DNA of 39,956 bases from an uncultured delta proteobacterium (GTDB taxonomy: Bacteria; Desulfobacterota; Syntrophia; Syntrophales; UBA2185). Location of the stretch: positions 1 to 39,956 of the forward strand of contig CAVOID010000006.1 in NCBI GenBank assembly GCA_963695875.1, given 5' to 3'. Of this stretch, positions 19,900-27,521 are shown piece by piece. Every line of letters begins with the position of its first letter. The first letter of the stretch is position 1. Position numbers and translations under genes: made by a program. Under the pieces are notes generated by a model. That model was not told where the DNA came from and made no database searches. It saw only the letters and a list, made by a program, of their open reading frames with translations.

Positions 19900-19976
19900 G
19901 CCCCCGTAGCTCAGGCGGATAGAGCAACGGATTCCTAATCCGTGTGCCGCGTGTTCGAGTCACGCCGGGGGCACCA
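19900..19976 (+). tRNA. tRNA-Arg(CCT)
   Basis: GCCCCCG/CGGGGGC acceptor stem, ACGGA-TTCCTAA-TCCGT anticodon arm, GTTCGAG T-loop, encoded CCA. Confidence 0.95.
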
Positions 19977-19980
19977 ATAA

Positions 19981-20045
19981 AATCAACAAGTTAGTTACTA
20001 TCATCAAATCCCTCCATATCCCAGTTTGCTAACCTATTGCTACCC
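19981..20045 (+). other. att-like region: IHF consensus site plus short direct repeats 3' of tRNA-Arg
   Basis: AATCAACAAGTTA matches WATCAANNNNTTR; TTGCTAACC (20026) and TTGCTACCC (20037). Confidence 0.55.
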
Positions 20046-20215
20046 CTTGTTTATAATCTTAGTTATCTCTGATTGTGAATTCAAGTTTGCTGGGAGGCGT
20101 TTATCTAGCAGGAGGATTTACGTTACAAGGTCGATCTGGTCGGTGCTGGGATCTTGTGTGTTTAGAAAATCTGTTTCACCTTGTGTTCTTATTGCTTAAT
20201 GAATGTTATAAACTA

Positions 20216-20391
20216 CCGGCTGAGAAGCCAGGGTAAAATGGGAGGAGAGAATCTGTGTTTCACCTGATGCGTCAGAGCATGATAAGTAGATTAGATCCTT
20301 TTCCCACTGCTTTGTTCAGTAACTCGTACGGTATCATAAACCTTCCCAAATGGGAATGAGTTTGCACTTGCAAGGTTGATTCGAACGAAGC
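20216..20391 (+). ncRNA. IS110 bridge RNA (5' hairpin, target-binding loop, donor-binding loop)
   Basis: GGCT-GAGA-AGCC hairpin; stem 20239-54/20293-306 enclosing TGTTTCACCT and TAAGTAG; stem 20309-17/20383-91 enclosing ACGGTATCA and TGCAAG; the guides match the element junctions. Confidence 0.85.
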
Positions 20392-20437
20392 TATTTTACT
20401 GGAGGCTAGATTAATAAGTTAAGAGAGGTGTTTTATT

Positions 20438-21406
20438 ATGTCAGTATCGATTCTTGGGATAGATATCGCGAAACAGAAATTTGATGTCGCACTTCTTGTA
20501 GATGAGAAGACAAAACATAAGACCTGCAAGAATTCGGCGGAAGGCTTTGAGACGTTGATGCTCTGGCTTGAGAAACAGGGAATTCAGAAGGTCCATGCCT
20601 GTCTGGAAGCAACGGGCAGCTATGGAGAGGACTTGGCGATCTATCTTTATGAAGCCGGCCACATTGTCAGCATTGTCAATCCCGCCCGTATCAAGGGGTT
20701 TGCCCAGAGTGAACTGATTCGCACCAAGACGGATAAGATTGATGCCGCCTTGATTGCCCGGTTCTGTCTGGCCATGAAACCAGGTGCATGGATTCCGCCT
20801 CCACCGGAGATCAGATCCTTGAGAGCTTTGGTCAGAAGGGTTGACAGCTTGGTCGACATGCGAAGCCAGGAGAAGAATCGGCTCAGCACGGCACGTGAAT
20901 CTGTCATTTCTTTGATCAAAGAACATATAGCTTATTTGGATCAGGAAATTGAAAAGATCAGGCGACAAATTACCGATCTCATAGGACAAAATCCACATCT
21001 TAAACGGAGGAAGGAATTGCTGGAGTCTATTCCCGGTATTGGTAAGGTAACTATTCCTCACATCCTGGCAGAATTAGATGACCTGGAAAAATTCAACCAC
21101 GTTCGTCAAATGGTGGCATTCATCGGCCTCGCGCCAAGGGAAACGCTCTCAGGATCATCTATTAAAGGGAAACCCAGATTATGTAAGATGGGACATACAA
21201 GGCTCAGAAAGACCCTATATATGCCTGCATTGGTGTCAATCCAATGCAATCCTGTTATGATCGATTTTTATAACCGTCTAAAAGATAAAGGCAAGAATGG
21301 CAAAATTATCGTCTGTGCGATTATGAGAAAACTGGTTCACGTTATCTTTGGAGTCTTGAAATCCGGGAAAAAGTATGATCCGAATTATAAACCAGCTTCC
21401 GCTTGA
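20438..21406 (+). CDS. IS110 DEDD recombinase (bridge recombinase), intact
   Basis: LGIDIAK, CLEATG, KTDKIDA RuvC-like DEDD residues; SIPGIG; GLAP...SGSS catalytic Ser; AIMRKL. Confidence 0.95.
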   Translation: MSVSILGIDIAKQKFDVALLVDEKTKHKTCKNSAEGFETLMLWLEKQGIQKVHACLEATGSYGEDLAIYLYEAGHIVSIVNPARIKGFAQSELIRTKTDKIDAALIARFCLAMKPGAWIPPPPEIRSLRALVRRVDSLVDMRSQEKNRLSTARESVISLIKEHIAYLDQEIEKIRRQITDLIGQNPHLKRRKELLESIPGIGKVTIPHILAELDDLEKFNHVRQMVAFIGLAPRETLSGSSIKGKPRLCKMGHTRLRKTLYMPALVSIQCNPVMIDFYNRLKDKGKNGKIIVCAIMRKLVHVIFGVLKSGKKYDPNYKPASA

Positions 21407-21487
21407 CAAGAACGGTATCTACTTACCAATAATTTTCTGTTTGGACTTGATGTGAAGATTACCATTTGAACTGTGGGCTCTGATAGT

Positions 21488-21670
21488 GTTGCAAAATCCA
21501 TAGTACCGCACCATCTGCTCGCTACTGTTGGGAATGTGGGAGCACAGGCTGACCCGTCATTCCAGGGCAGGGAAGACCTTGATGGACTTCCCGTCATTAG
21601 ACGCATAGACGACCTTTACCTCCTGATCTAGATACTGCATCTATTCCTGGGAGAACGACGCTCGGATGAT
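21488..21670 (-). pseudogene. IS91-family (rolling-circle) transposase fragment
   Basis: One frame reads IIRASFSQE*MQYLDQEVKVVYASNDGKSIKVFPALE*RVSLCSHIPNSSEQMVRYYGFCN, matching the IS91-type C-terminal region, with two stops. Confidence 0.75.
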
Positions 21671-21705
21671 ATCTACCCTGGCTATTTCCAACTCCTTTAA
21701 GGAGG

Positions 21706-22155
21706 TCAGTAGTTTAACAAAAACCCCCACTGAGCTTCCGGATCTTTCTCAAATCGCTTGGTCATTAGCATTTCAAGCATCATATGGTGTTTTTTTTCAT
21801 CTCCCCATATCTGCTCGAAAATATATTGAAGTGCGGGTGTCTTGGTTAGGGATCTAATTTCAGCAACAAATTCTCTGTGTTCTTTTTCCATATCGCTATG
21901 TTTCTTTATTAAATCCCATACTTCTTTTCTCTCCTTAGCCCCCACAATGGCCTTGAAATCCAGGATTTCTATCGCTGCCCGACCGAAATCAGCATGCTTG
22001 CGTGAATCATGCTGAATCGCCCGCAGCAGAAATTTTACGGTTGTATTTTCTGCCTCGTTAATTGCCTTCTCTGTCAGATCGACTACTTCCTCCTCAGTTT
22101 TAATAAGTTGCTGTACTGTTGATTTTAATTTATCAATACTCTCTTCAGTGGCCAT
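21706..22155 (-). CDS. Ferritin-like four-helix-bundle protein
   Basis: EEEV...HDSRKH...EKEH...DEKKHH repeated acidic/His pattern; AGGAGG RBS. Confidence 0.7.
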   Translation of the reverse strand: MATEESIDKLKSTVQQLIKTEEEVVDLTEKAINEAENTTVKFLLRAIQHDSRKHADFGRAAIEILDFKAIVGAKERKEVWDLIKKHSDMEKEHREFVAEIRSLTKTPALQYIFEQIWGDEKKHHMMLEMLMTKRFEKDPEAQWGFLLNY

Positions 22156-27423: not shown

Positions 27424-27521
27424 TGGCGGAAGTGCATGGGAATCGAACCCACCTGGGACGGTTCTAGCGCCCCACACTGGATTTGAAGTCCAGGAGGCCC
27501 ACCAGTGACCTTGGCACTTCC
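27424..27521 (-). tRNA. selC: tRNA-Sec(TCA)
   Basis: 8-bp acceptor GGAAGUGC/GCACUUCC, CUGGA-CUUCAAA-UCCAG anticodon arm, long variable arm, GCCA end. Confidence 0.95.

Follow-up and report, generated by a model that had tools for sequence, protein, structure and literature searches.

We analyzed a 39,956-nucleotide stretch of DNA from an uncultured delta proteobacterium of the Syntrophales (assembly GCA_963695875.1, contig CAVOID010000006.1, positions 1 to 39,956; hereafter the window), with a focus on an insertion sequence of 1,239 bp at positions 20182-21420. This element is very probably an intact member of the IS110 group, of the IS621 type, with a bridge RNA of about 178 nt encoded in its left end; its mechanism is assigned by homology to IS621. 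The reading is carried by guides in two RNA loops that match the element's own junctions, by an RNA fold shared with relatives, by modest covariation of guides and flanks, by an uninterrupted target site in a relative, and by a recombinase with all catalytic residues in place. The features on which these arguments draw are listed here, all on the forward strand (+).

20172-20181 (+): left target half, TGTTTCAC, with the CT core at 20180-81; identical to 20256-65 in loop 1
20182-20437 (+): left end (LE), 256 nt, non-coding, predicted to encode the bridge RNA; its start, TGTGTTCT, is kept in 46 parsed copies
20185-20190 (+): LE arm GTTCTT of a sub-terminal inverted repeat, with its partner AAGAAC at 21409-14 (reverse-complement check)
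20204-20212 (+): candidate extended -10 element, TGTTATAAA, just before the 5' hairpin; TATAA is kept in most relatives while its surroundings vary
20216-20232 (+): 5' stem-loop with a GAGA loop, from the fold; 32 of 40 relatives have a hairpin of differing sequence in this position
20240-20305 (+): target-binding loop (TBL) module, with outer stem 20240-55 / 20292-305 and apical hairpin 20267-80, from RNAalifold (helices 1 and 2 98.9-100% paired)
20257-20265 (+): left target guide (LTG), GTTTCACCT, 9 nt including the core; 9/9 identical to the left flank, the match extending to T20256
20283-20291 (+): right target guide (RTG) TAAGTAG (20283-89; core 4 nt GTAG, 20286-89) and TBL handshake AT (20290-91); the RTG is the reverse complement of CTACTTA at 21419-25
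20309-20391 (+): donor-binding loop (DBL) module, with outer stem 20309-17 / 20383-91 and stem-loop 20343-56, from RNAalifold and pair counts
20328-20335 (+): left donor guide (LDG), ACGGTATC; 8/8 identical to the right end at 21412-19
20366-20376 (+): putative split right donor guide (RDG), AC (20366-67), bulge UUG and CAAG (20371-74), followed by DBL handshake GU (20375-76); complements donor T14, G13 and G11-C8
20438-21406 (+): recombinase gene, 322 aa, with D9, E57, D99, D102 and S238-G239 (open reading frame (ORF), Pfam, IS621 alignment)
21403-21408 (+): perfect -35 hexamer TTGACA over the stop codon, 12 nt from the element end; its putative role is that of the hexamer in IS621
21407-21420 (+): right end (RE), 14 nt, terminating ACGGTAT-CT; GACAAGAACGGTATCT is kept in relatives
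21421-21427 (+): right target half ACTTA(CC); complements the RTG at 8/9 positions including the core and, in a relative whose site is unoccupied (L099), follows the left half without a break

Element boundaries and guide matches

Both junctions carry a CT dinucleotide, at 20180-81 on the left and at 21419-20 on the right, as read directly from the sequence of 19900-21700. A second full copy of the element lies on another contig of the same genome (C11) and is 91% identical, with homology only over window 20177-21422. The few flank bases common to the two copies are there because their targets are similar; the limits of homology and the presence of CT on both sides therefore place the element at 20182-21420. 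The unoccupied site in L099 holds a single CT, with no target duplication beyond the core. The long LE of 256 nt and the short RE, which leaves 14 nt after the stop codon, give the element the layout of the IS110 group.

The host assembly is of metagenome type (16 contigs, 82.6% complete), and a third trace of the family, an 82-nt left-end fragment, is found on its contig C7. This fragment (L003:1495-1590) starts at a normal junction, TTCACCT-TGTGTTC (the first hyphen in such strings marking the junction), ends after GAGAATCTGT and is joined directly to the right part of the host repeat (ACGAGTCG...). Neither end of the deletion coincides with a CT core.

The guide matches were compared with chance expectation in the 39,956-base window. 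The 10-mer TGTTTCACCT occurs only at 20172-81 and 20256-65, against 0.11 expected occurrences (two or more in 1/100 shuffles). The 8-mer ACGGTATC, at 20328-35 and 21412-19, has three occurrences against 0.65 expected (three or more in 1/100 shuffles). The predicted target sequence of the window element is GTTTCACCTACTTA.

A preliminary description of this DNA, made from its letters, had placed the element in the IS110 (IS621-type) class with these boundaries and a CT core, and the second copy, 40 further copies, the unoccupied site and the catalytic residues agree with it. Every string and coordinate that it listed (TGTTTCACCT, TAAGTAG, ACGGTATC, TGCAAG at 20369-74, the GAGA hairpin) was found in the sequence. 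Its target, GTTTCAC-CT-ACTTA, is borne out by the guide and flank matches and by the L099 site, and its donor, ACGGTAT-CT-TGTGT, by the 8/8 LDG match and the RDG match to the LE start. It had named other copies and empty sites as a check; both were found, in the second copy on C11 and in the unoccupied site ..CACCT-ACTTATC.. of L099. That the element is a "complete natural RNA-guided recombinase" is something we infer, as the description did, from sequence.

Structure of the predicted bridge RNA

The 178-nt segment at 20216-20393 folds with -53.9 kcal/mol (z -2.64; 3/200 shuffles were equally good) into a 5' hairpin and two long stems that bear large internal loops. The first of these stems is interrupted by a large internal loop and capped by a small apical hairpin, and the second has a large internal region and a hairpin. 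A U-rich run follows on the 3' side of the last stem.

For a consensus fold, 32 of the 42 parsed relatives were aligned; those omitted were near-duplicates, indel-bearing or truncated (L024, L026, L034, L039, L045, L047, L050, L051, L052, L055). RNAalifold recovered the same outer stems and hairpins on these 32 relatives. Across 32 pairs in four helices, 99.1% of 1,024 cells are paired, compared with 45.6-52.0% when the partners are slid. Two-sided changes were counted at four pairs (13 cells), a number that 0/500 shuffles reach, and the DBL stem-loop at 20343-56 has eight compensatory C-G to U-A changes. The fold, the consensus and the pair counts thus all agree with the target-loop and donor-loop layout that had been proposed.

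Within the loops, the RTG and TBL handshake are laid out as G77-G80 and A81/U82 are in IS621. The donor side that the split RDG would complement is the LE start TGTGT after CT, with six Watson-Crick pairs (6/6), and its AC is invariant in 32/32 aligned relatives. The preliminary description had read the left-end guide in loop 2 as the contiguous TGCAAG. A guide is indeed present in that loop, but the contiguous reading gives four pairs and two wobbles, and the split one fits better. We therefore prefer the split, IS621-type RDG (AC...CAAG), a choice that the sequence alone cannot decide.

Covariation of guides and targets in relatives

A search for related loci returned 76, mostly in metagenome-assembled genomes of Syntrophales, Syntrophaceae and Smithella. 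With the two from this genome included, 46 copies had two parsable ends, and 42 were tested after removal of L016, L019 and L022, whose flanks are too short, and of L035, a duplicate of L034. At the seven non-core positions of the left target (LT), guides match their own flanks at 215/294 positions against a permuted mean of 195.0 (reached in 0/20,000 permutations). At the five positions of the right target (RT), the corresponding values are 168/210 and 154.1 (1/20,000). Covariation across homologues, which had been named beforehand as a check, is thus seen, in that own flanks beat permuted flanks.

Among the 42, the window copy has the closest match, with 9/9 for the LTG (10/10 with the extra base) and 8/9 for the RTG complement (7/7 over 20283-89). 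Individual copies that leave the family pattern are informative as well. The guides of L020 (..TCAACCT / CTTTCAA) are off the pattern in both halves, and its flanks likewise (..ACAACCT / CTTTCAA). L013 has AGTTCACCT in guide and flank alike, 9/9 on one half; L037 matches at 9/9 on the RT side; and the second genomic copy has an RTG of TTTGTAG beside a flank of CTACAAG.

A further coupling involves the handshake. Target position 7, next to the core, is T instead of C in both LTG and flank of L021, L031 and L032, and these are the only 3 of 32 with A rather than G as the DBL handshake base (context CAAGA, compared with CAAGG in the others). In IS621, position 166 of the DBL is paired with target position 7, according to the available text of Hiraizumi et al. 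(2024, PMC11208158). Judged by the letters, the handshake of the window copy agrees with this pairing, A with donor T7 and G with target C7.

Donor sequences are nearly constant in the close family, and covariation of donor and LDG rests on one distant case. Of 14 distant homologues inspected, 5 repeat the 8-mer that directly follows their ORF at a point roughly 90-110 nt upstream of the gene; one of these, L079, has a different donor, ACAGTTGC.

Three of the copies (L013, L020, L034), which are 80-87% identical in protein, were binned as Bacteroidia, Bacteroidales and Cloacimonas. L034, from the Cloacimonas bin, and L035, from a Smithella bin, hold one and the same element between the same flanks, which points to binning errors or recent transfer.

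The recombinase

The 322-aa protein contains both Pfam domains of the family, PF01548 DEDD_Tnp_IS110 (E 8.6e-28) and PF02371 Transposase_20 (E 4.5e-25). Its closest solved structures are IS621 8wt6 (E 1.4e-84, residues 5-316) and ISCro4 9t56 (E 5.7e-84). In the alignment to 8wt6, D9/E57/D99/D102 and S238-G239 correspond to D11/E60/D102/D105 and S241-G242 of IS621, where mutation of the five catalytic residues D11, E60, D102, D105 and S241 abolished recombination, as stated in the available text of Hiraizumi et al. (2024, PMC11208158). The open frame, the domains and the residues are those of the intact DEDD and serine recombinase that the preliminary description had announced. Most close relatives are also 322 aa long. 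Metagenomic relatives are abundant, with 6,821 of 8,000 scored candidates at E <=1e-40 and the best of them 94% identical; their names, if any, are only 'transposase' or 'IS110 family transposase'.

Target site, host repeat and insertion into guide-coding DNA

The uninterrupted site in L099 reads ...cttgCACCT-ACTTATCaatgattttc... or, over a longer stretch, ...cttgCACCT-ACTTATCaatgattttcggtttggaaTTGAAGTGAGGATT..., and it is colinear, from the very first base on, with the right flank of the window element (77% over 250 nt). This right flank (window 21421-21670, about 250 nt) belongs to a repeat that is found many times over in related genomes. Other unoccupied members read TACACCT-ACAAAGC (L085, in the same genome), TTCACCT-ACCGAAG (L104) and TCCACCT-ACAAGTT (L107), and unoccupied members have ..CACCT-AC.. 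about 28 nt before TTGAAGTGAGGATT. Within the repeat in L099 (L099:1500-1910) lies part of a Y2 (IS91-like) transposase (PF04986, 25.8 bits, cut-off 20.9). The window's own repeat remnant had no Pfam match. The site was also considered as a possible terminus of an IS91-like element: no Y2_Tnp match was found in the genome of the window, and the intact Y2_Tnp genes found in relatives are without the repeat's motif nearby. A 149-aa ORF on the reverse strand (window 21706-22155) adjoins the repeat.

On the left, the element stands 205 nt downstream of a tRNA-Arg(CCT) gene (window 19900-19976, + strand), and the 160 nt before it (20025-20184) recur at 94% downstream of another tRNA on contig C5 (L004/L006). 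The C5 site is unoccupied and reads TGTTTCACCT-TGTCGTC, so that its left half fits the guide 10/10 and its right half does not. The sequence common to window 20025-20184 and C5 runs 3 nt (TGT) past the CT core. A tRNA-Sec gene lies farther off on the reverse strand (window 27424-27521, 76.2 bits). In the assembly there is no perfect free 14-mer target, and sites with two or fewer mismatches to it number 18, compared with 32 for a reversed control pattern.

Two relatives (L026:780-1060, and the duplicate pair L034:670-950 and L035:775-1055) have an LE stub of 82-83 nt that ends exactly at the ..CCT of the LTG and is followed by a complete LE. The arrangement occurs with two different LTG sequences and is best read as the insertion of one copy into the DNA that encodes the guide of another, already resident one, with a possible later collapse by recombination between the two copies. 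Insertion at this place is expected if the LTG sequence defines the cut site, the DNA of the LTG being a copy of the left target and core.

The left flank of the window element (20148-20181) resembles the element beyond the guide match (AGAAAATC--TGTTTCACCT compared with AGAGAATCTGTGTTTCACCT), and ATCTTGTGT within it resembles an end-to-end junction. By a statistically weak and speculative reading, this flank could be the decayed stub of an older copy: an alignment of left flank and LE as good as that obtained with the 10-nt guide match was reached by 18/2,000 shuffles, and without those 10 nt by 1,682/2,000.

These observations suggest a wider idea that we consider unlikely, namely that the Syntrophales lineage is a natural specialist. 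It would combine an unusually long target match (10-nt LTG and 7-nt RTG side) with one fixed IS91-like site and would also land in the guide-coding DNA of copies already present, by matches to the left half only, the left flank in the window being a decayed older stub. If so, the guide gene itself would seed new insertion sites, and the family would offer natural examples of half-site recombination as well as a high-specificity orthologue with an IS621-like loop layout.

Candidate expression signals and public sequence data

The two ends of the element hold what may be halves of a promoter. In a circle, TTGACA would stand 17 nt from TCTTAT (20187-92) in the LE, and the pair can be likened to the junction promoter of IS621. 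The conserved TGnTATAA(A) at 20204-12 is a candidate alternative promoter to this hybrid TTGACA-17-TCTTAT.

We also searched the assembled contigs of four public runs at 90% likeness, a form of data from which RNA ends and strand are not readable. Contigs from RNA libraries cover the ORF and 20369-20481 at 90-99% likeness, and their source may be relatives or DNA. Public contigs diverge at 20174 and 21422 into other flanks, as expected of other copies. No circle junction or precise-excision joint was found among the contigs of the four runs, and these public data as a whole weigh neither for nor against the model below.

Proposed mechanism

By homology to IS621, the LE would be transcribed into a bridge RNA of about 20216-20393, with the 5' hairpin, the TBL and the DBL, and the element would excise in circular form, with the junction ...ACGGTAT-CT-TGTGT.... 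The donor loop would pair with this circle junction, LDG ACGGTATC to the bottom strand and the split RDG AC/CAAG to the top strand. The target loop would pair with genomic GTTTCAC-CT-ACTTA, the LTG to the bottom strand and the RTG to the top. A tetramer of the DEDD and serine recombinase would then exchange strands next to the CT core. For the window copy, we infer transcription, promoter, circle, RNA dependence and any present activity by analogy.

Weighing the evidence

Several observations weigh against this reading or temper it. The whole 256-nt LE is no better folded than shuffles (z -0.67). Rfam gave no match to a bridge-RNA family (at gathering scores only two tRNAs, and at E up to 10 on 20150-20460 three chance-level matches), and a two-hexamer sigma-70 scan called no promoter upstream of the RNA in the integrated form. 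The 7-mer TAAGTAG/CTACTTA is not rare alone (3 matches in the window, 2.73 expected, 55/100 shuffles) and carries weight only through its position, 3' in the same loop, and through the covariation seen in relatives. That covariation is modest: the targets are alike, belonging to one repeat family, most copies depart from their flank at 1-4 of the 7 LT positions, and minority guide bases are mirrored by the flank at only 18/45 (LT) and 10/16 (RT) positions. The second genomic copy matches its own flanks at only 5/7 (LT) and 5/7 (RT) positions. The copies are related, not independent, and the permutation counts overstate the support; the three handshake variants, too, may stem from a single event. 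On the donor side, three mismatches between donor and LDG are uncompensated (the right ends of L028 and L032 and the LDG of L039), and the shared 8-mer was not found at the expected places in 9/14 distant homologues. Lastly, the two genomic copies are 9% apart, and recent activity is not evident.

Part of this pattern would also arise if the element were an IS110 member whose site is set mainly by the protein or by the structure or sequence of the repeat's DNA, the RNA loops mirroring a fixed family target. Nearly all targets have ..CACCT-AC.. within one repeat family, the tracking of minority changes in the LT guide is as low as stated above, and structure-plus-sequence target recognition by another IS110 element is described in the available text of a 2026 preprint (10.64898/2026.03.19.712850). 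We nevertheless hold this explanation to be very improbable: own flanks match above permuted ones, changes are coupled in both halves of L020 and between position 7 and the handshake base, and the self-insertions at LTG-coding DNA lie outside the repeat. RNA dependence has, moreover, been demonstrated for the homologue IS621, as the available text of Durrant et al. (2024, PMC11208160) reports. Scarcely credible is the view that the matches are due to chance or that the contig is a chimera joined at a repeated insertion sequence. It draws on the metagenome-type assembly in 16 contigs with 82.6% completeness, on flanks that are themselves repeats and on the commonness of the 7-mer; yet both junctions match guides in one RNA loop, chance would give 0.11 occurrences of the 10-mer in the window, and the left and right flanks rebuild the site uninterrupted in L099 and, in diverged form, in contig C5.

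A more serious question is whether the window copy is a structurally intact but silent relic, its matches recording one past insertion by an element no longer mobile in this genome. We consider this doubtful while giving it some weight. It accords with the 9% difference between the two genomic copies, with the truncated LE fragment elsewhere in the genome and with the dearth of free targets (no perfect 14-mer, and fewer near-sites than for the reversed control). Against it stand the intact ORF, catalytic residues, guides and ends; the guides still match their flanks perfectly, so that there has been little drift since insertion, and the assembly in which free targets were sought is only 82.6% complete.

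Comparison with known systems

The closest described system is IS621 of E. coli. The two recombinases are homologous end to end, with the same DEDD and Ser-Gly residues, and both elements have a long LE, a short RE and a CT core. The comparison is made by protein alignment and by nucleotide numbers quoted from the structure paper. In these terms, and as far as the available text of that paper goes, the likeness extends to an RNA of about 177-178 nt with a 5' hairpin, TBL and DBL, to a 9-nt LTG, a 4-7-nt RTG and an 8-nt LDG, and to a -35 hexamer in the RE. The split RDG has the same 2+3+4+2 spacing as A157-U158 / C162-G165 / G166-U167, and the handshake letters are A,U / G,U. The elements differ in target (GTTTCAC-CT-ACTTA here, ATCAGGC-CT-AC for wild-type IS621 in the available text), in the natural RTG match, which is 7 nt for the window element, and in host and site, which are a Syntrophales-type anaerobe and a repeat with an IS91-like remnant rather than the repetitive extragenic palindromic element used by IS621. 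No DNA-level match to any E. coli genome was found. The sub-terminal inverted repeat is 6 bp (AAGAAC/GTTCTT) here, compared with the 2-3 bp reported for the IS110 group in the available literature.

ISCro4/IS622 (PDB 9t56; 10.1101/2025.05.14.653916, available text) is the second-best solved relative and has the same two-component layout. It is a different orthologue, likened here by protein and layout. The IS1111 group, of the seekRNA type (a name taken from PMC13604230), likewise has a DEDD recombinase and selects target and donor through an RNA guide, and its members have a long RE, a short LE and sub-terminal repeats of 7-17 bp according to the available text of Durrant et al. (2024, PMC11208160). 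Membership of that group is ruled out for the window element by an RE of 14 nt, an RNA in the 256-nt LE and an inverted repeat of 6 bp; judged on its sequence, the element has the domain, end, core and guide-loop features of the IS110 group, along with a candidate handshake pairing and a candidate junction promoter, and lacks those of the IS1111 group. Landing at a fixed site of another mobile element also has a parallel within the IS110 family: IS4321 and IS5075 are said, in work attributed to Partridge and Hall in 2003, to target the terminal repeats of Tn21-family transposons. They differ in the host repeat, which for the window element carries a Y2-transposase (IS91-like) remnant.

Durrant et al. 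(PMC11208160, available text) described the class itself in 2024 and reported covariation across 5,511 target and 2,201 donor pairs. In two supplementary files of that work, the donor 13-mer turned up in other sequence contexts, 43 times in one and 59 in the other. A 22-nt donor-loop stretch of the window element had no match in the searchable parts of the six files, whose alignments are gapped, so that absence is not shown. No paper naming the window element was found in a literature search aimed at the class only. The mechanism class is established and thousands of orthologues are predicted, and the gain is thus a new orthologue and its natural history, not a new principle. What the Syntrophales family, with at least two diverged copies in each of several genomes and with metagenomic relatives in the thousands, adds to IS621 and its kin is a natural bridge-RNA system from a lineage of uncultured anaerobes. 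Its target, donor, handshake positions and empty site can be read from genomes, and it offers natural evidence on guide-target covariation, handshake pairing and insertion into guide-coding DNA.

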